From an uncultured Gammaproteobacteria bacterium (GTDB taxonomy: Bacteria; Patescibacteriota; Patescibacteriia; UBA9934), in contig CAYFMS010000002.1 of assembly GCA_964344415.1 (NCBI GenBank), forward strand, positions 128,196 through 192,195: a DNA stretch of 64,000 bases. The letters run 5' to 3'. Shown here in pieces: positions 1,616 through 63,509 of this stretch; the first letter of the stretch is position 1; the number at the start of each line of letters is the position of its first letter. Below the pieces are notes generated by a model that did not search any database, was not told the origin of the DNA, and saw only the letters and a program-made list of their open reading frames with translations. The position numbers and the translations under genes are program-made.

Positions 1616-2941
1616 ATGCTTGAATCTATGGCAAAAACCAGTGTGAAATCGAAAGGGAAAATCAAACTCACCAAGGAATTCAAGCAAGCATTTGAAACGA
1701 TTGAGAAAACAAAAAAGAATATTTTTCTTACAGGGCGAGCTGGAACAGGGAAGTCGACGCTCTTGAAATATTTTCGTAAGAAAACAAAGAAAAAGCATAT
1801 CGTTTTGGCTCCAACCGGTGTTGCAGCATTAAATGTAAAAGGGCAGACAATCCATTCATTTTTTGGTTTTCATCCACAAATCACAAAACAAATGGTGCGC
1901 AAAGCTTCCGACGAAAAGCGTGTATTGATGGGCGGTTTGCAGACAATTGTGATCGATGAGATTTCAATGGTTCGGGCTGACCTCCTTGATTGTATTGATG
2001 CATCCCTTCGACTGAACAGAAAATCGAAAGAGCCATTTGGTGGCGTGCAAATGATTTTTATTGGAGATCTTTTTCAATTACCCCCCGTTGTGACTCGCGA
2101 CGAAACTGACCGATTTAAAACCGAATATGAATCACCGTATTTTTTCTCGGCGGATGTTATGCGACATACGCCAATAGAAATTATCGAATTAAAAACAGTA
2201 CATAGGCAGACAGAGAATCATTTTATTGATCTGCTGGAAAAGGTGAGAATGAAATCACTAGATTATGATGATCTTACACATTGGAATGAATGTCATAATC
2301 CCTATTTCGACCCGCGTGAGGAAACGGGATATATTCATTTGACGACAACAAATAAAATGGCTCATCAGCGTAATCAGTATGAATTGAAACAGCTCTCCGG
2401 TAAGGAATGGAAACTCCGTGGTAAATCCGAGGGGCAAATTCCAGATAGGCGCATGCCATCAGATGCTCTTATTGCGATCAAAGAGGGCGCGAGAATTATG
2501 TTTACCGTCAATGATCCTGAAAAGCGTTTTGTGAATGGAAGTCTTGGGACGGTGAAAAAGATAAAGAAAAATGGATTATCCAAAGATCCAATTCTTGTCA
2601 TTGAATTAGAAAATGGGACACAGATCAAGGTCGCGCGGCATACATGGGAATTATTTGAATATACGCAGGGCGATAATGGACCAACCGAATCAGTTGTCGG
2701 ATCATTTAGTCAGTATCCGATTGCTCTTGCATGGGCGGTGACGATTCATAAAAGTCAGGGGAAGACATTTGATAAAGTTCTGGTTGATATTGGTTGGGGT
2801 GCATTTGCACATGGTCAAATGTATGTCGCATTGAGTCGTTGTACAACATTTGATGGATTGGTGCTGATGAAACCTCTGAAGCAAAAAGATGTCATTTTAG
2901 ATCGCGCCGTTGTTCAATTTATGAATGGATCACAGATATAG
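1616..2941 (+). CDS. PIF1/RecD-family ATP-dependent DNA helicase
   Basis: Walker A motif GRAGTGKST, DEISMV, a LPPV motif, and the C-terminal HKSQGKTFD...ALSRCT signature typical of the Pif1/RecD family. Confidence 0.75.
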   Translation: MLESMAKTSVKSKGKIKLTKEFKQAFETIEKTKKNIFLTGRAGTGKSTLLKYFRKKTKKKHIVLAPTGVAALNVKGQTIHSFFGFHPQITKQMVRKASDEKRVLMGGLQTIVIDEISMVRADLLDCIDASLRLNRKSKEPFGGVQMIFIGDLFQLPPVVTRDETDRFKTEYESPYFFSADVMRHTPIEIIELKTVHRQTENHFIDLLEKVRMKSLDYDDLTHWNECHNPYFDPREETGYIHLTTTNKMAHQRNQYELKQLSGKEWKLRGKSEGQIPDRRMPSDALIAIKEGARIMFTVNDPEKRFVNGSLGTVKKIKKNGLSKDPILVIELENGTQIKVARHTWELFEYTQGDNGPTESVVGSFSQYPIALAWAVTIHKSQGKTFDKVLVDIGWGAFAHGQMYVALSRCTTFDGLVLMKPLKQKDVILDRAVVQFMNGSQI

Positions 2942-7164: not shown

Positions 7165-7240
7165 GCCGCCGTAGCTCAGTTGGTAGAGCGCATCCATGGT
7201 AAGGATGAGGTCACCAGTTCAATCCTGGTCGGTGGCTCCA
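7165..7240 (+). tRNA. tRNA-Thr (GGT)
   Basis: Sequence GCCGCCGTAGCTCAGTTGGTAGAGC...atGGTaa...GGTTCAATCC...GGCTCCA with a hand-folded cloverleaf. Confidence 0.8.
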
Positions 7241-11953: not shown

Positions 11954-12784
11954 ATGAATGTGAAAAAGGAGGACGGTCGCATCGTCCCATTTGACCCAGC
12001 AAAAGTGATTGAAAGCATCAAAAGAACTGGTGCGGGCGATGAAGTTGCGGAGAAAGTTCTGAATGCTGTGCGTTCAAAAATGACAGATGGCATGACAACA
12101 GCGAAACTGTATCACCTTGTACGTGCCGAGCTTGATAAGCAAAATATTTGCTTCGCTTGTAGATATGGCTTGCGGGAGGGGATTTTAAAGCTTGGTCCGG
12201 CTGGATATAATTTTGAATATTATATTGCTGCTATTTTGCGTGCCTATGGCTATGAAGCTACAAATCCGCAAAGAGATATCGAGGGAAGTTGCGTAGCTCA
12301 TGAAGTTGATGTTATTGGCGAAAAAGACGGGAAGCGTATTTTTATAGAAGCAAAGTTTAGGAATCGTCGCAGCGATAATGTGAATTTGAAAGATATCATG
12401 GCAACATGGTCCAGGTTCGTTGATTTGGTCGATGGAGGGTCAATGGGCAAGAATCCTGGTTTTGACGAATGTCATGTTATGACAAATGCTCGTTTTTCTG
12501 ATCGAGCATTGGCATTTGGTGAATGTAAAGGAATGAAATTAACGGGATGGAGCTATCCGAAAGAGGGGGCATTTAATGAATTGGTTGATCGAGTTGAGTT
12601 TTACCCAGTGACTGTCATTGAAGATATGTCAAAAACGGAGCTTGAGCATTTCGCGAAAGCAGGACTCATTTTATGTAAAGATATTGAGGGTCTGGAACCG
12701 GAAGAGTTGGCGGACCGGACGGATATTTCTGTGCATCGCGCAGAAGAATTAATCGGACTTTGCACGAAAGTAATTGAGGGATAA
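11954..12784 (+). CDS. ATP-cone domain fused to an Mrr-like PD-(D/E)xK restriction endonuclease domain, with a C-terminal HhH-like region
   Basis: N-terminal sequence VKKEDGRIVPFDPAKVIESIKR is ATP-cone. The nuclease core has D...EVDVIG...EAK. Confidence 0.6.
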   Translation: MNVKKEDGRIVPFDPAKVIESIKRTGAGDEVAEKVLNAVRSKMTDGMTTAKLYHLVRAELDKQNICFACRYGLREGILKLGPAGYNFEYYIAAILRAYGYEATNPQRDIEGSCVAHEVDVIGEKDGKRIFIEAKFRNRRSDNVNLKDIMATWSRFVDLVDGGSMGKNPGFDECHVMTNARFSDRALAFGECKGMKLTGWSYPKEGAFNELVDRVEFYPVTVIEDMSKTELEHFAKAGLILCKDIEGLEPEELADRTDISVHRAEELIGLCTKVIEG

Positions 12785-15699: not shown

Positions 15700-17775
15700 A
15701 TGAAGGAATTCGTTTTAACAGGTTCTTCACCGAGAGATTTGAAAATTGATTATGATGCTGAGCTTAATGATCAGCAATTGCAGGTCGTGAAAGAGGCGGA
15801 TGGTGCATCACTCGTTTTGGCTGGGGCCGGTTCGGGAAAAACACGTACCATTACCTATCGTGTTGCATGGCTGATGGAGCATGGAGTGAGTCCAGAAAAT
15901 ATCTTGCTTGTCACATTCACAAATAAGGCATCACGCGAAATGATCGAACGAGTGGAGGGGTTGCTTGGGTCTTATCCAAAAGGGCTTTGGGCTGGAACAT
16001 TTCACTCAATTGCGAATCGATTGTTGCGTAAATATGCTCACACAATTGGGTATCAATCGAATTTTTCTATTCTAAGTGAGGAAGATGCGCGCGACCTAAT
16101 TTCCCTCTGCGTAAAAGATTTAAAAATTGACACGAAAAAACGTCGCTTTCCAAGTAATAAAGTTTTGCTTGGCTACATTTCATATAGTCGGAATAGGCAA
16201 GATGATTTTGAATGGTTTATCGAGCATAATCATCCGAAAATGCTACCAATTATTGGCGACATGAAGGCAGTTGCGAATAAGTATGCCGAAGTAAAGAAAT
16301 TGCAGAATGCAATGGATTTTGACGATTTGCTTATTAATTTACTTGAGCTACTTCAAAATCCGGAAATTATTAGTCGGCTGTCGAATCAATTTCAGTATGT
16401 ATTGGTTGACGAGTTTCAGGACACAAATATCGTGCAGGCAAAAATTATTAAACTCATATCGAGTACGCATAAAAATGTCCTCGTCGTGGGGGATGATGCG
16501 CAGAGTATTTACTCATTCCGAGCGGCTGAAATCCGAAATATTCTCGATTTTCCAAATAGCTATGAACAGGCGAAGACATTCAGATTAACGAAGAATTATC
16601 GTTCAACACCGCAGATTCTCTCGATTGCAAATGCAGTTATTCAACATAATGAAGAACAATTCGATAAAGAATTATCTGCGACACGGGGCGGAGGTTCGCT
16701 TCCGGAATTAATCCCTGCTCGCAGCACAAGTCAAGAGGCGCAATATATTGCCGAAAAGATTTTAGATTTGCATGCAAAGGGGACGGCGCTCAGTGAAATT
16801 GCTGTGCTATTCCGCGCCGCATTTCATTCACAGGCACTTGAATTCGAGCTCATGAAACGCGACATTCCATATGACTATCGTGGCGGGATGAAATTTTTTG
16901 AACGTTCACATGTGAAAGATATTGTTTCGCATCTGCGTCTCCTCAATAATTTGAAAGATGGAATGGCTTGGGTGAGGGCACTTCGTATTCATCCAGGAAT
17001 TGGATTGGTAACGGCGGGGAAAATATCTGCCAAAGCGGGTGCATTTGATTCACTCAGGGATGCAGTAGACGCTTTGGGTCCTGGAGGAAAAAGGGCGCAA
17101 GCAGGATTTGAGGGATTTAGGCGCATTATTCGGAAGATGCTTTCCGTCCCAGATATGCCATCGGAACTCATACGAGCCCTTGCTTCAAGCGACGATTATA
17201 AAGCATATATCGAAAATGAATTTCCAAATTATCAGGATCGTTTGGATGATTTAGAGCAATTTGCCGTTTTCGCTGAGCAATTTAATGATCTCGGTGAATT
17301 TTTGGATGCAGTGAGCTTAACGGATGAATATGGTGTGAATACAAAGCAAAATCAGCCAATCGATAGTGATCGCATTATTCTTTCTACCATTCATCAGGCA
17401 AAGGGGCTTGAATGGGATGCGGTATTTATTATGAATTTGGCGGATGGAAAATTCCCGAATAAGCGCGCAATGGAAGAAGCGGATGGTGTTGAAGAAGAGC
17501 GCCGGCTTTTTTATGTCGCGACGACGCGTGCCCGCAGCGCACTTTTCATGACTTATCCAATCACGGCTGGATACGAACATGTTGAATTACAGCAACCGTC
17601 TATGTTTATCGATGAAATTCCAAAGGAAATGTATGAAACGGTGAAATTGCGCCATGAGAGGCCTCGGTATAATCATTCCCGACGCTCGGATGATTTTGAT
17701 ACTATTGTTCTTGATGAGCTTGGTGAACAGATTAAAAAACCAATGCCATCGTCATTCTTAAAAGATATTACATAA
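15700..17775 (+). CDS. pcrA: UvrD/PcrA-family ATP-dependent DNA helicase
   Basis: Walker A motif AGAGSGKTRTI, LLVTFTNKA, VLVDEFQDT, and YRS. The length of 691 aa is typical. Confidence 0.85.
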   Translation: MKEFVLTGSSPRDLKIDYDAELNDQQLQVVKEADGASLVLAGAGSGKTRTITYRVAWLMEHGVSPENILLVTFTNKASREMIERVEGLLGSYPKGLWAGTFHSIANRLLRKYAHTIGYQSNFSILSEEDARDLISLCVKDLKIDTKKRRFPSNKVLLGYISYSRNRQDDFEWFIEHNHPKMLPIIGDMKAVANKYAEVKKLQNAMDFDDLLINLLELLQNPEIISRLSNQFQYVLVDEFQDTNIVQAKIIKLISSTHKNVLVVGDDAQSIYSFRAAEIRNILDFPNSYEQAKTFRLTKNYRSTPQILSIANAVIQHNEEQFDKELSATRGGGSLPELIPARSTSQEAQYIAEKILDLHAKGTALSEIAVLFRAAFHSQALEFELMKRDIPYDYRGGMKFFERSHVKDIVSHLRLLNNLKDGMAWVRALRIHPGIGLVTAGKISAKAGAFDSLRDAVDALGPGGKRAQAGFEGFRRIIRKMLSVPDMPSELIRALASSDDYKAYIENEFPNYQDRLDDLEQFAVFAEQFNDLGEFLDAVSLTDEYGVNTKQNQPIDSDRIILSTIHQAKGLEWDAVFIMNLADGKFPNKRAMEEADGVEEERRLFYVATTRARSALFMTYPITAGYEHVELQQPSMFIDEIPKEMYETVKLRHERPRYNHSRRSDDFDTIVLDELGEQIKKPMPSSFLKDIT

Positions 17776-46273: not shown

Positions 46274-48043
46274 ATGACAAGCGCTGAACTTCGAAAGAAA
46301 TATATCGATTTTTTTACACAGAATGGACATGTAGAAATCCCGTCCGCATCTGTTATTCCCGAAAATGATCCATCTGTTCTCTTTACAACGGCGGGCATGC
46401 ACCCACTCGTTCCGTATTTGATGGGTGAATCGCATCCTTCGGGCAATAGAATTGTGAATTCCCAAAAATGTGTCCGAACTGGTGATATTGATGAAGTCGG
46501 TGATGAAACGCATCTGACATTCTTTGAAATGCTTGGAAATTGGTCGCTTGGTGACTATTTTAAAGATGAATCTATTTCATGGAGCTTTGAATTTTTGACT
46601 TCGGATGAATGGCTGGGAATTCCTACTCAGAAATTAGCGGTGAGTGTATTCGCTGGTGATGACGATGCTCCATTTGATCAAGAAGCATATGACAAATGGT
46701 TATCTCTAGGTCTTCCGGAGGCGCGCATCGCTAAGCTCGGAAAAGAAGATAATTGGTGGCCAGCTGGTGGAAAGCATGCGGGACCTCAAGGGCCAGACAC
46801 GGAAATATTCTATTGGACTGGCGACGGAGAAGCTCCGGATAGCTTTGATCCTGAAAATGAAGCTTGGGTTGAGATTTGGAATAATGTTTTCATGCAATTT
46901 AATAAGGATGAATCAGGTAATCTCTCACCACTTGCGCAGAAAAATGTGGACACGGGCATGGGGCTTGAACGTGTGGTAGCGGTTCTGCAAGGAAAGAAAT
47001 CCCCATATGAAACGGATATATTCGCTGGGATACTTCAAAAAATTGCTGAACTTTCTCAAAAAGAATATGAAGGTGAGTACAAGGAATCGATGCGTGTAAT
47101 TGCGGATCATATTCGAAGTGCTATTGTCATTATTTCGGATGGGATCACTCCGTCGAATAAAGATCAGGGGTACATTTTACGTCGGCTCATTCGCCGCGCT
47201 GTTCGTCATGCACGAAAACTTGATATTGCTGGCGTGGATTTGATGCAGCCATTAACAGACGAGGTTATTTCATCACTTGGCGAGGCTTATCCGAGCATTC
47301 CTGAACAAAAAGATCATATTATTCAAACGCTTGAAGCAGAGGCGCAGAAATTCGACAAAACAGTTGAAAAGGGGCTTCGAGAGCTTAAGAAGTTCTGGGA
47401 TAAGAATGGAAATATTACTGGTGAAGATGCATTTAATTTGTATCAAACATTTGGATTTCCATTTGAGCTTACGGAAGAGGTGGCGAAGGAATATGGTCAG
47501 ACGGTGGAGGCTGGGGAGTTCAGGAAGGCATTTGAAGCACATCAGGCTAAGTCTCGCGAGGGCGCGGGGCAGAAATTTGCTGGTGGCCTTGCGGATACGA
47601 GTGAGGAAACGACGCGATTGCATACTGCAACGCACTTGCTTCATAAGGCCCTTAGAATGGTGCTTGGTGAGCATGTTCAGCAAAAGGGGTCGAATATCAA
47701 TCAAGAACGATTGCGGTTTGATTTTTCGCATGACAAAAAGGTGACGCCCGATGAGATTGCTGAAATTGAAGAGATTATAAATGAGCAGATTGATGCTGCC
47801 TTGCCAGTTTCATTCGGTCTCATGTCGGTTGAGGATGCAAAAGCCGCAGGGGCTCTCGGATTCTTCGAAGACAAATATGCACAGCAAGGCGGAAAGATAA
47901 AAGTTTACTCTGTTGGTGATTTTAGTAAGGAGATTTGCGGTGGACCACATGTCGCGAATACATCAGAACTCGGGAGCTTCAAAATCAAGAAAGAAGAGGC
48001 CTCATCTGCAGGCGTAAGAAGGATTAAAGCAGTGCTTGGTTAG
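46274..48043 (+). CDS. alaS: alanine--tRNA ligase (short form lacking the C-Ala domain)
   Basis: N-terminal FTTAGMHPLVPY, the editing motif HTATHLLH, and GGPHV. 589 aa. Confidence 0.8.
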   Translation: MTSAELRKKYIDFFTQNGHVEIPSASVIPENDPSVLFTTAGMHPLVPYLMGESHPSGNRIVNSQKCVRTGDIDEVGDETHLTFFEMLGNWSLGDYFKDESISWSFEFLTSDEWLGIPTQKLAVSVFAGDDDAPFDQEAYDKWLSLGLPEARIAKLGKEDNWWPAGGKHAGPQGPDTEIFYWTGDGEAPDSFDPENEAWVEIWNNVFMQFNKDESGNLSPLAQKNVDTGMGLERVVAVLQGKKSPYETDIFAGILQKIAELSQKEYEGEYKESMRVIADHIRSAIVIISDGITPSNKDQGYILRRLIRRAVRHARKLDIAGVDLMQPLTDEVISSLGEAYPSIPEQKDHIIQTLEAEAQKFDKTVEKGLRELKKFWDKNGNITGEDAFNLYQTFGFPFELTEEVAKEYGQTVEAGEFRKAFEAHQAKSREGAGQKFAGGLADTSEETTRLHTATHLLHKALRMVLGEHVQQKGSNINQERLRFDFSHDKKVTPDEIAEIEEIINEQIDAALPVSFGLMSVEDAKAAGALGFFEDKYAQQGGKIKVYSVGDFSKEICGGPHVANTSELGSFKIKKEEASSAGVRRIKAVLG

Positions 48044-50938: not shown

Positions 50939-51709
50939 ATGGAAAATATTCTACTTCCATCAAAGATGACGTTCACGGATGGTGAACGAGAACATGAAAC
51001 GATTCTTACAATTGAACCGCTTCATCATGGTTACGGAACGACAATTGGAAACAGTTTGCGCCGTGTCCTACTTTCTTCACTTGAAGGAGCTGCGGTTACA
51101 GCTGTAAAAATCAAAGGTGCACAGCATGAATTCTCAACAGTAGACGGAATCAAAGAAGATGTTCTTGAAGTTATTCTTAATCTCAAGAAACTTCGAATGA
51201 AAATGCATGCAAATGATTCTGTGACACTACAAATTGAAAAAACAGGTCATGTTGGTTCGGTAACAGCAAAGGACATTGAAGCAAATGCTGATGTTGAAAT
51301 CATGAATACCGACCTTGTTCTTGCAACACTTACGGACAAGAAGGCTACGCTTAACATGGAAATCACGGTAAGTCGTGGTCGAGGGTTCCTTCCAACAGAA
51401 GAAATGGACACAACAGGAAATGAAATTGGTCTTATTGCCGTTGATGCAATGTTTAGCCCAATTGTGAATGTTGGAATGAAAGTTGAAAACACGCGTGTTG
51501 GTGAGATTACGAACTATGACCGTCTTGTAATGGCTATTACAACAGATGGAACGGTTACAGCTCAGGAAGCGGTGACGAATGCAGCGCAGGTGATCATGAA
51601 TCACTTCAACTGGATTGATGGACAGCTTTCTCATGCATCGCTTACGGAAAAAATTAATACCGCTCAGGAAGAAAAAAAGGAAACGGAGGATGATTCTGAC
51701 GAAGAATAA
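50939..51709 (+). CDS. rpoA: DNA-directed RNA polymerase alpha subunit (NTD only, acidic tail)
   Basis: 256 aa of alpha-NTD only (IEPLHHGYGTTIGNSLRRVLLSS). It ends in an acidic tail and has no alpha-CTD. Confidence 0.8.
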   Translation: MENILLPSKMTFTDGEREHETILTIEPLHHGYGTTIGNSLRRVLLSSLEGAAVTAVKIKGAQHEFSTVDGIKEDVLEVILNLKKLRMKMHANDSVTLQIEKTGHVGSVTAKDIEANADVEIMNTDLVLATLTDKKATLNMEITVSRGRGFLPTEEMDTTGNEIGLIAVDAMFSPIVNVGMKVENTRVGEITNYDRLVMAITTDGTVTAQEAVTNAAQVIMNHFNWIDGQLSHASLTEKINTAQEEKKETEDDSDEE

Positions 51710-59608: not shown

Positions 59609-60550
59609 CTATTTGAGTACGGATCCTTCTATCTTAGAATATCCTGCAATAAAGGCCTTAGCGGGCATTTTTTGCTTGCCCTCGATTTGAAGCTCTGTGA
59701 TTTCGACGGGATAAGTGGATGTTCCGATATATATTTGACCGTCACTGACTTTGACTTCTCCTGGCGAGAGTGTCAGGTTTGAATCTCTTGCTATTTCAAT
59801 GCTATGCAATTTCAGCATTTTGCTATTCCATTTTGTATAAATTCCTGGCCAAGGACGATAAGCGCGCAATTGAGCATCAATTAATTCTGCAGAATTATTC
59901 CAGTTAACATTTCCATCCTCTTTTTTGATCAATTTGCAGAATGTCGCTTCATCGTGATTTTGTTCTTTGGGAATAAGATCTCCGGCCACAAATCGCTTCA
60001 TCGATTCAACAAGCATAGGAGCTCCGATTTCAGCAGATGAATTCAATATAGACATGGTGTCATCCTGATCCGATATCTCTATCGTTTTTTGCATCAGAAT
60101 TGGGCCATGATCCATTTTTTCATCAATAAGCATAATGCTAACGCCAGTTTCCTTATCTCCAGCTGCAATCGCCGCCTGTACAGGACTTGGGCCACGGTAT
60201 TTAGGGAGAAGGGATGGGTGAACATTTATATTTCCATATTTTGGAATATCTAGCAGTTTTTGAGGAATAATTTTTCCATATGCAACAATAATGAACAGAT
60301 CTGGCTTCAGATCTTGAATATGGTTTATGAATTCCGGATTTCGCAATTTTTCTGGCTCAAAGACCGAGATACTCTTATCCTCTGCGAAAACTTTAACAGG
60401 AGAGGGGGTTAATATCTTTTTCCTACCAACGGGTTTATCAGGCTGCGTGACGACCGCAGATACAAAAATATCCTCGTCTGCATGAAGCGATTCGAGGAAT
60501 TTTTTTGAAAAGTCAGGAGTCCCAAAGAAAACAATATTCATATTAAGCAA
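59609..60550 (-). CDS. fmt: methionyl-tRNA formyltransferase
   Basis: Motifs NIVFFGTP, INVHPSLLPKYRG, and a C-terminal domain. Confidence 0.85.
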   Translation of the reverse strand: MLNMNIVFFGTPDFSKKFLESLHADEDIFVSAVVTQPDKPVGRKKILTPSPVKVFAEDKSISVFEPEKLRNPEFINHIQDLKPDLFIIVAYGKIIPQKLLDIPKYGNINVHPSLLPKYRGPSPVQAAIAAGDKETGVSIMLIDEKMDHGPILMQKTIEISDQDDTMSILNSSAEIGAPMLVESMKRFVAGDLIPKEQNHDEATFCKLIKKEDGNVNWNNSAELIDAQLRAYRPWPGIYTKWNSKMLKLHSIEIARDSNLTLSPGEVKVSDGQIYIGTSTYPVEITELQIEGKQKMPAKAFIAGYSKIEGSVLK

Positions 60551-61049
60551 GAATTTCAGCTTCTTTTTCTGGTGTCAAATCATGAATTTTATGCGCTCTA
60601 TCAATGAAGAGAATTCCGTCCAAATGATCAATTTCATGCTGAAAAATCACTGCAAGTAATCCGCCTGTTCCAATATGAACTGGATTTCCCTTTCTATCGA
60701 GAGCTGAAGCCTTAATCTGCTTATGCCGTTTAACAATTCCATATACACCCGGAACGGAAAGGCATCCCTCTTCGCTATCAATCATTTTCGATGATGTCTT
60801 TGTGATGATCGGGTTAAAGAAGGCCTTATGTCCTTGCTTCGTTTCTGCCACAAAAAGTCGAATATGTTTACCAATCTGTGTAGCAGCGAGTCCTACACCG
60901 TCCTCGTCTTTCATTGTTTTTAACATGTCATCGACAAGAGTTTGCATTTCATCAGAAAGAATCTCTTCAACCGAAAGTTCCCGCGCTTTTTCACGCAGTT
61001 CATCATTTGGATGATGTAGTACTGGAATTCGGTTCATAAGGTGTTTCAT
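60543..61049 (-). CDS. def: peptide deformylase
   Basis: Motif 1 GVGLAATQ, motif 2 EGCLS, and motif 3 HEIDHL. Confidence 0.85.
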   Translation of the reverse strand: MKHLMNRIPVLHHPNDELREKARELSVEEILSDEMQTLVDDMLKTMKDEDGVGLAATQIGKHIRLFVAETKQGHKAFFNPIITKTSSKMIDSEEGCLSVPGVYGIVKRHKQIKASALDRKGNPVHIGTGGLLAVIFQHEIDHLDGILFIDRAHKIHDLTPEKEAEILA

Positions 61050-62724
61050 TTGTGATGATAATTGAATCTGGCAAACTCTTCAAAATCTTCTTAACATGTG
61101 GCCATGCGTCGGTAGATATTTGAAGAAGAAGTGTATCAGATTCTTGGATAAAATCAAGTGCTCGTAATGGTTCGGGAATATCAGAAGAGGGAAGTTTGAT
61201 TCGAATTCTTTTACCAAATGGCGGGATCTGTAGGCTGCGACGATCTTGATATTCTTCCAATTCAGCTTCAAAGCTTAATGCATGCTGTGTTGAGTCGAAT
61301 GTACCAGTCTGGCAAAGAAATGATGCGCGCAGGTCTTCTGAAACGAGGCGACTTCTCGCAAGTTTATATCGTAATTCATGCTTGCTATCTATTCCAGGAG
61401 GGAATAAGTGCAGTTCTGAACGTAATTCAATGAGTGACCCTATGTTCTGCTGGAGATGCTTATGGTAATGCTTGAAGAAATATTCCGTCGCGACAATGAT
61501 ATTTGCATTGAGATCTGTATGCAATGCATCATAGACGGAAGATTTCACATTGAATAACTTTTGTATTCGATCTGCGATTGCTTCATTTCCAATTCCTTTC
61601 TCTTTCATCTTTTTTGATGAACAGGCGGGGCACTGGGGTGGTTTATACATTTCTACATTACAGATAGTGCAGGCTAAGTCATGAATGCGTACAGTTGGCG
61701 CATTCCCGCAGCCCGCACAAAATGGTATATGTCCACAATCATGACATTCTAATATCTTTGCCGCGCCTTTTCGATTATAGATAAGCACTGCCTTCTTACC
61801 TTGCTTGATTGTTTTTTCTATCTTGCTCTGGGCTGTTTGACTAAGCCAGAACACATCTGTCTTTTCATTCGGTGCATGCATGTCGATGAGTGGGATAGAT
61901 TCACCTTTGATCGGATGTGCATGCGGCGAGCGATAATAACCTAATTCTGTGTATTTTGTATTGTATTGATCAGATAGTTTACGGGCAGAATGTACAGCAT
62001 GATAGCGTGGGTTTTGGTCGAGCATTTGATACTCGGACGAATTAGGATGCATGACGATTACGTGATCAATATCGTGACCTGGAAGTAGGCTTGCTACGCG
62101 TGTGCCAACCAAAACCTGAATTGATCCTGATCGCCATTTCTGAATGATTGTCGACGCGATGGCTCTCTTCGTTTTTCCTGTAAGCGTATGGACATTATGC
62201 GATGCAGCGAGTTGTAACGATATCCAATGAGCTAATTCATCATTCGGGCAAATAATGAGTACTTGATTCTTGGTATGTGAAATATATTCATGCAATCGAA
62301 TAAGTTGCGATCGTAAATGAACACATTTTTTATCCGATTGTGCTTCGGATATATCACGACGTGAATAGGTGAGAGGAGAGGTGGTCTTGGGAGTGGCATC
62401 TTCCTTATCGTCATCAGGTCGATAATGTCGATACATGACATAGAATAGATTTGCAGGTGATTGCAAAATTTCATCGGCAATCCATTCAATGCGCTGAATA
62501 TCGGACTCGCTCAGCATATTCTTTGACACGATGCCCTCGACCGAAGAAAGTCGTTTAAAATTACTTGTCTTGCTCACATTTCTGACAATGCCGCGTATAC
62601 GATTTCTTCGCAGAGAAATTTCAACCATATCTCCCGTTGATACATCCATATCATCTGGAATGCGATAATCAAAAAAACCAAGCCTCCTTGGGCTCCTTCT
62701 GATTGGATAAACTTGTGCGATCAT
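61003..62724 (-). CDS. priA: primosomal protein N' (PriA) homolog with degenerate helicase motifs
   Basis: N-terminal 3'-DNA-binding domain (IAQVYPIRR...FDYRIP...G..V.ISLRRNRIRGIV) and the Cys-rich Zn region CHDCG...CAGCG...CTICN...CPACS. Walker A GSGKT is absent. DEEH is replaced by VMHPN. Confidence 0.65.
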   Translation of the reverse strand: MIAQVYPIRRSPRRLGFFDYRIPDDMDVSTGDMVEISLRRNRIRGIVRNVSKTSNFKRLSSVEGIVSKNMLSESDIQRIEWIADEILQSPANLFYVMYRHYRPDDDKEDATPKTTSPLTYSRRDISEAQSDKKCVHLRSQLIRLHEYISHTKNQVLIICPNDELAHWISLQLAASHNVHTLTGKTKRAIASTIIQKWRSGSIQVLVGTRVASLLPGHDIDHVIVMHPNSSEYQMLDQNPRYHAVHSARKLSDQYNTKYTELGYYRSPHAHPIKGESIPLIDMHAPNEKTDVFWLSQTAQSKIEKTIKQGKKAVLIYNRKGAAKILECHDCGHIPFCAGCGNAPTVRIHDLACTICNVEMYKPPQCPACSSKKMKEKGIGNEAIADRIQKLFNVKSSVYDALHTDLNANIIVATEYFFKHYHKHLQQNIGSLIELRSELHLFPPGIDSKHELRYKLARSRLVSEDLRASFLCQTGTFDSTQHALSFEAELEEYQDRRSLQIPPFGKRIRIKLPSSDIPEPLRALDFIQESDTLLLQISTDAWPHVKKILKSLPDSIIITNETPYEPNSSTTSSK

Positions 62725-63509
62725 AAATCGAAATCTGCAACGAGAAGTCCGACACCAAATGGCGCTTCATAACTCAGTATGCGTGGCTTGGCGCTCATTC
62801 TGTCGAGAATTCCCATCAGAATGGCGAGCGGGCGATAGGCGGTTTCCTGTGCATGCTCAATCAGATCCTCAGACATTGAAAGAAGACTCGATACATTTTT
62901 CGATGCAATAATGTCTTGTATGCGTTCATCGAATATTTTTCCATCTTCATGAAATGGTGCGGGACTATCATCGGTAAGTGCATGTGATAAATCTCCAGCA
63001 GCAATAACGGCGATTCGTTCACGGCATCCATGTAATATATCCTTCAAAGAACGTCCAAAATCAAAATGCGCCTTAGCGTCCAGTTCAGAATATGTGATGG
63101 GAATAATCTTCATATTATTGAGCCTCCTTGTCATAAATCCAAGTGGTATCGCAGCGGCATAATGAAGAGCAGAATCCGTGGTGAGAGAAATCGGTTGATC
63201 ATCAATACGTAATTGTCTTTGAATGCGATCGATAATTTTAAGTGCCGGGTGAAGTGTACGTTTAAAACCGAGGTCTCCAAATGCGGAAAGATCGAATTGA
63301 TAAGGATCGTCTACGTTGATGGAGAAGGCATTTTTATAAATGGTTGGGTGTTCGCTGATCAGGACAATAATATCCGGCTTAGAATCGTAAAGAGCATCAG
63401 ACAATTCATACATTGCTGTTCTTGTTTTTTCGAAATAAACTCTCAAATCCTTGCTAATTGATGAAAGCAGGAGAGGGGAATGCGGCGTAAATCCCGCGAA
63501 TACAATCAT
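62721..63509 (-). CDS. MEMO1/AmmeMemoRadiSam system protein B family protein
   Basis: N-terminal AGFTPHSP and IAAGDLSH motifs of the extradiol-dioxygenase-like MEMO fold. Confidence 0.55.
   Translation of the reverse strand: MIVFAGFTPHSPLLLSSISKDLRVYFEKTRTAMYELSDALYDSKPDIIVLISEHPTIYKNAFSINVDDPYQFDLSAFGDLGFKRTLHPALKIIDRIQRQLRIDDQPISLTTDSALHYAAAIPLGFMTRRLNNMKIIPITYSELDAKAHFDFGRSLKDILHGCRERIAVIAAGDLSHALTDDSPAPFHEDGKIFDERIQDIIASKNVSSLLSMSEDLIEHAQETAYRPLAILMGILDRMSAKPRILSYEAPFGVGLLVADFDL

Follow-up and report, generated by a model that had tools for sequence, protein, structure and literature searches.

Can the PriA helicase lose its entire motor and still be maintained by a bacterial lineage? 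This question is raised by a gene in a 64,000-nucleotide stretch of DNA (hereafter the window) from contig CAYFMS010000002.1 of GenBank assembly GCA_964344415.1 (positions 128,196 to 192,195), deposited as an uncultured Gammaproteobacteria bacterium and placed by GTDB in the Patescibacteriota (Patescibacteriia; UBA9934). A complete open reading frame (ORF) on the minus strand encodes a 573-residue PriA-like protein in which none of motifs I, II, III, V and VI is recognisable in alignments with canonical PriA. An earlier note on this DNA, made from the letters alone, had called the protein a PriA homologue that lacks Walker A and Walker B, and had proposed that it was either a scaffold or a decaying gene. 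We find that it is an orthologue of PriA and consider it probable, by analogy with known motor-dead PriAs, that it has become a pseudohelicase, that is, an ATP-independent scaffold for fork recognition and helicase loading. Its parts, all on the minus strand, are as follows.

61003..62724 (-): complete PriA-like ORF, 573 residues, a PriA orthologue without ATPase motifs
62425..62724 (-): 3'-DNA-binding domain (3'BD), residues 1-100, pLDDT about 90-95
62320..62424 (-): low-confidence linker, residues 101-135, in place of the winged-helix (WH) domain, pLDDT < 50 at residues 105-121
61939..62319 (-): RecA-like lobe 1, residues 136-262, predicted to be catalytically dead, pLDDT 84-93
62224-62265 (-): motif Ia, QVLIICPNDELAHW, residues 154-167, aligned with canonical motif Ia
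61990-62013 (-): loop next to (after) motif II, NPRYHAVH
61759..61839 (-): start of RecA-like lobe 2, with motif IV, IYNRKG, retained at 61765-61782
61609..61758 (-): cysteine-rich region (CRR), residues 323-372, with four CxxC pairs from C327 to C368 (61621-61746)
61300..61608 (-): rest of RecA-like lobe 2, residues 373-475, with T413 and Q472-T473 kept
61006..61299 (-): C-terminal domain, residues 476-573, with conserved R495 and I-P-P-F (61216-61230)

The relationship to PriA is seen at the level of domains, profiles and structure, and the earlier claim of homology is borne out by all of them. Pfam PriA_3primeBD (PF17764) covers residues 17-97 (E 3e-11), the only strong phmmer matches in the PDB are PriA chains (E about 1e-14), and the family profile aligns with a profile of 14 canonical PriAs in hhalign with a probability of 100% (E 1.6e-64, 532 columns), from residue 1 to residue 521 and with a single large gap at the WH domain. 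An AlphaFold2 (AF2) model built on 15 family sequences (mean pLDDT 81, pTM 0.78) gives a confident fold for the two lobes, for the zinc region and for the C-terminal domain; it is confident to residue 560, the last 9 residues being disordered. In a Foldseek comparison of this model with the PDB, the top match was 8fak_H (E 2.6e-28, TM 0.70), followed by 6dgd, 6dcr and 4nl4, all of them PriA. PriA chains matched at TM 0.61-0.70 (E 1e-21 to 1e-28), and the next fold classes, Mfd, DEAD-box, RecQ and RecG, came in only at E > 1e-7. The two-lobe RecA-like core fold of helicase superfamily 2 (SF2) is thus present, both lobes being covered by the hhalign alignment as well. The homology, together with a priA-def-fmt locus shared with less eroded PriAs of other Patescibacteria (see below), identifies the protein as a PriA orthologue, descended from PriA helicase. 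It should be noted that it falls short of the curated NCBIfam equivalog models (TIGR00595 and PRK05580), its best score being 116.6 bits where 813 is the cut-off, and its score for TIGR00595 being 100.5 where 230.35 is required. A Pfam Helicase_C match at residues 143-231 was considered as a possible domain swap and rejected, since both hhalign and MAFFT align these residues with lobe 1 of canonical PriA (motifs Ia to II).

The motor elements compare with canonical PriA as follows.

Walker A, canonical LxGVTGSGKTEVY: P-loop deleted in the window protein, with only HLRSQL left (residues 136-141; 62302-62319)
Helix after Walker A: RLHEYISHTKN in the window protein (residues 143-153)
Walker B, canonical IIDEEHESSYKQ: VIVMHPNSSEYQ in the window protein (residues 222-233; 62026-62061)
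Motif III, canonical GSATPS (SATP): unrecognisable in the window protein, former region at 61927-61950
Motif V, canonical GTQMxxKGxDFP: ATEYFFKHYHK in the window protein, the former motif V, VATEYFFKH, lying at 61468-61494
Motif VI, canonical QVAGRAGRG: ARSRLVS--EDLRASFLCQT in the window protein (61306-61359), with a 2-residue deletion and no GRAGR arginine finger

The loss of Walker B was correctly seen in the earlier note: VIVMHPNSSEYQ aligns with IIIDEEHESSYKQ, and DEEH is replaced by MHPN. Loss of the P-loop was also correctly seen but misplaced, as the segment RLHEYISHTKN that had been set at Walker A aligns with the helix that follows it. The note had asked whether alignment with PriA orthologues might reveal intact Walker residues that it had put in the wrong place; none were found, the P-loop being deleted outright. 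The loss goes further than had been claimed, extending to motifs III, V and VI and to the whole WH domain. The absence of the latter is apparent from the spacer between the 3'BD and lobe 1, which is 43 residues long vs. 133-140 in canonical PriA, and from the hhalign gap across the WH columns. The WH domain is not universal, however, as some fully catalytic PriAs also lack it. The only GKT tripeptide, at residues 183-185, was examined as a relocated P-loop and rejected, because it aligns with canonical LHSxLS and the position is occupied by E, K, H or D across the family. From these alignments we infer, strongly, that the protein would be unable to hydrolyse ATP.

The residues that survive are of a different kind. 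Judging from the alignments, the catalytic residues are gone and those that remain are the predicted DNA-recognition ones. Both the 3'BD and the Cys-rich zinc region, which had been described as recognisable, are indeed there. Within the 3'BD, D19 and Y20 of the F18-D19-Y20 motif (62665-62673) are invariant in 67 family members and align with D17 and Y18 of E. coli PriA, which touch the 3'-terminal nucleotide (review PMC5778457). Motif Ia can still be aligned, as had been noted (IICPNDELAHW vs. canonical VLVPEISLTPQ), and its proline (P160) is kept. In the loop after motif II, which crosslinks to or binds the fork junction in E. coli PriA (PMC5175346), R240 is conserved in 87% of the family and the two residues before it, N238 and P239, do not vary at all, N238 of this NPR being family-specific. 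N317 (99%) and G320 (88%) of motif IV are both invariant in the six canonical PriAs of the alignment. All eight cysteines of the CRR (327/330/336/339/352/355/365/368) are invariant in alignment A1 and in the family-wide alignment A2, and the four CxxC pairs would be enough for two predicted zinc sites. In E. coli, the CRR, lobe 2 and the C-terminal domain form a pore round lagging-strand single-stranded DNA (ssDNA; PMC10175261). The C-terminal domain of the window protein has no match to PF18074 (PriA_C), though relatives carry one; P501 and P502 are conserved both in the family and in canonical PriA. Taken over 67 family sequences, the positions that at least 85% of them keep and that canonical PriA shares are F18-D19-Y20, G31, V34, G45 and V47 in the 3'BD, and, further on, P160, P239-R240, N317, G320, the eight cysteines, G379, T413, Q472-T473, R495 and P501-P502.

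Is the loss confined to one genome? Each GTDB species was represented by one genome in a degenerate-pattern scan, seeded from a six-sequence alignment, which yielded 64 loci in 64 species-level genomes; where the records are informatively titled, they are metagenome-assembled genomes of Candidatus Uhrbacteria, the Parcubacteria group or the Patescibacteria group. The ORF is complete at 62 of the 64 loci (513-614 residues), the other two being cut by contig ends, and motifs I, II, III, V and VI are absent in all of the orthologues that were aligned (63/63). We also searched a profile against 1.84 billion representatives of 50%-identity clusters and took the best 150 matches, all at E < 1e-88: neither GxxxxGK[ST] nor DEEH occurs in any of the 143 additional representatives among them. 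The loss of the Walker A and B catalytic residues is therefore lineage-wide, which answers the earlier suggestion to look for it in relatives. The few family members that carry a name in their source are called 'helicase-related protein', 'hypothetical protein' or, once, 'primosomal protein N''. As a side observation, many third-party-annotation bins titled 'uncultured Gammaproteobacteria bacterium' (L001, L002, L006, L010, L012 and others) carry Uhrbacteria-type loci with the dead PriA, def and fmt, and these titles look like placeholders or wrong taxonomy.

The gene lies in a minus-strand run of overlapping genes, consisting of a 451-aa gene, the LigB/Memo-like gene, the PriA-like gene, def, fmt and a NUDIX gene. 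The nearest neighbours are the following.

63506 to beyond 64000 (-): 451-aa gene with no assigned family, upstream of the LigB/Memo-like gene and running off the window
62721-63509 (-): LigB/Memo-like gene (AmmeMemoRadiSam-B-like), Pfam LigB 3e-27, the upstream partner
60543-61049 (-): def, Pfam Pep_deformylase 4e-47, with a 47-nt overlap with the 3' end of the priA-like gene
59609-60550 (-): fmt, Pfam Formyl_trans_N/C, downstream of def

The stop of the LigB/Memo-like gene and the start of the priA-like gene share ATGA, and the predicted N-terminus, MIAQVYPIRR, is the family consensus start. The identical 573-aa protein was recovered from two independent assemblies of run ERR2281801, the 768-kb contig of ENA ERZ930061 and a Logan assembly. 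In the 64 related loci, the LigB-like gene adjoins in every case (64/64), def in 62, fmt in 59 and an upstream gene of about 450-470 aa in 61. The priA-def-fmt arrangement pointed out in the earlier note is thus retained well beyond the window, and the order LigB/Memo-like, PriA, def, fmt is conserved across the family and in more distant Patescibacteria, in support of orthology.

To what extent the PriA-like gene is under selection was estimated as dN/dS from genome pairs with usable dS. Whole-gene values lay between 0.05 and 0.13 across pairs (for example, omega 0.094 at dS 0.61 for L032/L034 and 0.051 at dS 0.99 for L053/L054). With six pairs pooled, the CRR was the most constrained part (0.045), followed by lobe 2 (0.066), lobe 1 (0.079), the 3'BD (0.094) and the linker that lacks the WH domain (0.21). 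The dead RecA lobes thus range from 0.05 to 0.09. For the neighbours in the same genome pairs, dN/dS was 0.03-0.11 (def), 0.05-0.16 (fmt) and 0.03-0.14 (LigB-like); because the values match, the inert lobes are as constrained as genuine enzymes. The PriA-like gene is therefore not decaying at the level of the family and is held by purifying selection, which was the outcome of the dN/dS comparison that the earlier note had recommended. Of the two readings proposed there, that of a scaffold is favoured by the shared loss, the intact ORFs and the low dN/dS, whereas decay does not hold for the family.

What might a PriA without a motor do? Two precedents bear on this. E. coli PriA K230R (priA300) has no ATPase, helicase or translocase activity and is nearly wild-type, supporting the PriA-PriB pathway (PMC5778457, PMC10175261); it and K230A/D are motor-dead yet proficient in primosome assembly and PriA-PriB restart (PMC5778457), and provide the functional model for the window protein. 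The PriA of D. radiodurans has no ATPase or helicase activity, yet its affinity for ssDNA and forks is close to normal and it also binds DnaB (PMC4504706). These precedents, and the fact that the conserved residues map to DNA-contact elements, are the grounds for proposing a scaffold. By analogy with them, the 3'BD pocket (D19/Y20) would catch the nascent leading-strand 3' end at an abandoned fork or D-loop, and the inert lobes with the NPRY loop, the CRR and the C-terminal domain would clamp the fork junction and the lagging-strand template. Once bound, the protein would offer the replicative helicase DnaB a place to land, recruiting it either directly or via some partner. Unwinding of a duplex lagging arm, if needed, would have to be supplied by another enzyme; the window's UvrD/PcrA-type helicase (15700-17775, plus strand; GAGSGKT, VLVDEFQ) is a speculative candidate. 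This enzyme and a PIF1/RecD-like helicase (1616-2941, plus strand; GRAGTGKS, IVIDE) both have intact Walker A and B motifs, so that the genome is not generally degrading its ATPases.

Relatives of the window protein differ in how much of PriA they have kept. Six proteins of 632-637 aa from other Patescibacteria (P0218-P0223), one of them named 'primosomal protein N'' by NCBI (P0222), have neither WH domain nor P-loop nor motif VI and show the same 2-residue deletion; they keep IIIDEEDN and a TPS remnant of motif III. The P0218 locus (L067 5001-6899) contains a 467-aa gene, LigB/Memo, AMMECR1, PriA, def and fmt, with AMMECR1 between LigB/Memo and PriA. In the window's own family, just one 4-Cys knuckle is left in 6 of the 153 representatives (P0101, P0111, P0115, P0136, P0146, P0148) and 19 of 153 have no CRR at all (among them P0075, P0088, P0090, P0100, P0102-P0104, P0107, P0116, P0119 and P0121, and also P0124, P0129, P0131, P0134, P0139 and P0154). 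These orthologues with half a CRR or none are intact ORFs. At the locus of one of them (P0100, 520 aa, no CRR; L068 5001-6563), the order LigB-like, PriA-like, def, fmt is as in the window and is followed, also as in the window, by Wzy_C and two glycosyltransferases on the opposite strand. In the window a NUDIX gene separates fmt from Wzy_C; none was called at the P0100 locus. The CRR-reduced forms fall in at least 8 separate places in a rough neighbour-joining tree, which is indicative only, and this scatter suggests that the zinc region was lost repeatedly, after the motor had died.

It is quite possible, if somewhat short of probable, that PriA has been dismantled stepwise at one orthologous locus across Patescibacteria, with loss of the WH domain and P-loop, the state of the P0218 type with its DEED, then of all ATPase motifs, as in the window protein, then of half the zinc region and finally, repeatedly, of the whole of it. 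If so, a minimal replication-restart initiator would consist of a 3'-end-binding domain on an inert two-lobe clamp with a C-terminal domain. Fork restart in these ultra-small bacteria of the candidate phyla radiation (CPR) would then be independent of ATP and PriB and, in some lineages, of the CRR, with DnaB recruited by a yet-undescribed route. Unrelated degenerate PriA lineages, whose taxonomy is unassigned, are also without the P-loop and/or DEEH and without the arginine finger (P0020 with P0171-P0174; P0204/P0206/P0208; P0215; P0216), so that PriA pseudohelicases look polyphyletic in uncultured bacteria.

Several observations weigh against the scaffold, and some of them favour other explanations. 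Two of the four E. coli pocket positions are not conserved, G37 and K61 corresponding to R39 and S60 in the window protein. A clamp-and-dock model based on the E. coli CRR cannot apply unchanged to the relatives without a CRR, and both DNA binding and interaction with DnaB are assumed for every family member. A Pfam scan of the approximately 60 ORFs of the window did not find the restart partners DnaB, loader, DnaD, DciA, PriB or SSB. The lack of restart partners nearby would also fit a protein that has kept structure-specific DNA binding and been repurposed, for instance to assist recombination or repair, to serve in the nucleoid or in regulation, or to act together with the LigB/Memo-like or 451-aa protein. 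Such a change of role would account for the strict linkage to these two genes. It would also account for the repeated loss of the CRR, the part of E. coli PriA to which PriB docks and that makes up the ssDNA pore (PMC10175261). We nevertheless consider it unlikely: the 3'-end pocket, a hallmark of fork and D-loop recognition, is the most faithfully kept element, the gene order priA-def-fmt speaks for simple orthology, operon neighbours say little about function in genomes this small, and helicase-dead PriA sustains restart in E. coli and binds DnaB in Deinococcus. Another explanation, that a motif-complete PriA elsewhere in the genome does the work and that the window copy is an accessory paralogue, seems to us very unlikely. 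The search for PriA found a single PriA-like locus within the 64-kb window of the 768-kb contig, so that uniqueness is established for the window, and roughly 700 kb of the contig and the complete genomes of relatives leave room for a second gene. It is the window copy, however, that holds the conserved position next to def and fmt, and the less eroded PriAs of the P0218 group occupy the same locus, as expected of an orthologous erosion series. The best 150 profile matches, moreover, are all motif-less. In CPR genomes of 0.5-1 Mb, housekeeping genes of replication seldom have paralogues.

A further difficulty is the pace at which the window's own branch evolves. Compared with its sister L001 (6001-7737), the PriA-like protein is 37% identical, vs. 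79% for Def, 65% for Fmt and 68% for the LigB-like protein, and its dN is 0.66, vs. 0.15, 0.26 and 0.28, respectively; this corresponds to an approximately threefold faster rate than for the three neighbours. The PriA-like proteins of a comparable pair, L003/L064, are 57% identical, and in closer pairs the dN of the PriA-like gene equals that of def and fmt, rates being similar in the other branches of the family. The window protein also departs from the family consensus at eight conserved positions (L164, A190, H242, R265, L424, E437, S462 and L498) and has lost about 14 further residues where the beta1/P-loop site used to be. This sub-lineage is thus under relaxed constraint, below the family average, but constraint is not absent, because nothing interrupts the ORF, the key residues persist and omega, estimated crudely at saturated dS, is about 0.3-0.4. 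One could take these data to mean that, in this genome, the gene is a relic in decay, on its way to becoming a pseudogene and simply still free of a stop codon. This is likewise very unlikely, and a shade more so than a hidden paralogue: the 573 codons are uninterrupted, with family-typical start and end and overlaps with both neighbours, the AF2 model is confident across all domains, the eight cysteines and the FDY, NPR, NRKG, QT and PP positions are preserved, the sister gene in L001 is intact, and dN/dS across the family is 0.05-0.13. A further proposal, that nucleotide is still used through a non-canonical site or a composite active site formed with a partner ATPase, could explain why dead lobes are as constrained as real enzymes, and recalls earlier work in which E. 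coli PriA was reported to have a second, weaker site for nucleotide, which no structure has ever located (PMC5778457). We regard it as the least probable of all, given that the P-loop and the acidic pair of Walker B are missing, as are the residues of motif III and the arginine finger of motif VI, that no conserved replacement for them appears in 67 sequences and that the sole GKT tripeptide is not conserved. The reading of the protein as an ATP-independent scaffold thus remains the one that we prefer.

How does this protein compare with the PriAs already described? It shares with canonical PriA (E. coli, K. pneumoniae; 4NL4, 6DGD, 8FAK; TIGR00595) the D/Y pocket of the 3'BD, the two-lobe SF2 fold, the PRY loop, NRxG of motif IV, the CRR's four CxxC pairs and a putative C-terminal domain with the PP motif. 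It differs in having neither ATPase motifs nor a WH domain, in scoring far below the NCBIfam cut-offs and in that PriB and DnaT partners are not expected; PriB is poorly conserved outside Proteobacteria (PMC10175261). The E. coli K230 mutants, unlike the window protein, are single-residue laboratory changes in which the other motifs, the WH domain and the partner interfaces are intact; they need PriB and DnaT, and the PriA-PriC pathway does not work with them. The WH domain is also missing from the E. coli deletion 6DCR, one of the best structural matches, and from the natural short PriAs P0228, P0230 and P0247, which keep the rest of the fold; in contrast to the window protein, all of these keep the full ATPase motifs.

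The closest parallel is the Deinococcus-Thermus pseudohelicase (Lopper, Boone and Morrow 2015, PMC4504706), likewise a PriA orthologue with a lineage-wide catalytic loss in motifs I and II. A 2017 review describes PriA helicase activity as conserved 'except in Deinococcus' (PMC5778457). The state of Deinococcus PriA, with no ATPase or helicase activity, fork binding kept and a role in replisome reloading, is what we would predict for the window protein. In Deinococcus-Thermus, however, motifs I and II are poor consensus matches that can still be aligned, with the Lys of GKT changed to Arg (PMC4504706). Measured against that description, the erosion in the window protein is far deeper, with the P-loop deleted, motifs II, III, V and VI unrecognisable and the WH domain absent; the window form is also short (573 aa), has the 2-residue deletion in motif VI and is known from sequence alone. 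The CPR form presumably arose independently, as the erosion series lies inside Patescibacteria and the lesions described in PMC4504706 are different. A PriA pseudohelicase has previously been described only for Deinococcus-Thermus, and the CPR clade is a second and more radical case. We found no paper linking PriA with CPR, Patescibacteria or Uhrbacteria, in a literature coverage that was incomplete and that may have passed over an earlier mention.

That PriA can work without its motor is an already established principle. The CPR clade would represent a second, presumably independent and much larger natural experiment, in which the motor was deleted and selection is as tight as on def and fmt. 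This supports the idea that the core selected function of PriA is structure-specific fork recognition and helicase recruitment, rather than unwinding. The graded series, from partial motifs to no motifs, half a zinc region and none, offers a natural deletion map of the minimal parts of PriA. There is also a risk for annotation, since surveys could wrongly score replication restart as absent in CPR where the proteins fall below curated cut-offs and are named 'helicase-related protein' or 'hypothetical protein'.

Other features of the window touch on different subjects. The RNA polymerase alpha subunit (50939-51709, plus strand) has only 256 aa and no Pfam match to the alpha C-terminal domain. 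Alanyl-tRNA synthetase (46274-48043, plus strand) consists, in only 589 aa, of the catalytic core and the tRNA_SAD domain. The typical bacterial enzyme is longer, which, by comparison with that length, suggests that the C-terminal part is missing from the window enzyme. Four tRNA genes, three clustered at 1110-1572 and one at 7165-7237, are the sole Rfam matches in the window, and none bears on the PriA locus. Lastly, a 276-aa protein (11954-12784, plus strand) combines an ATP-cone, an Mrr-type restriction-endonuclease catalytic domain and an AF1548-like C-terminal domain.

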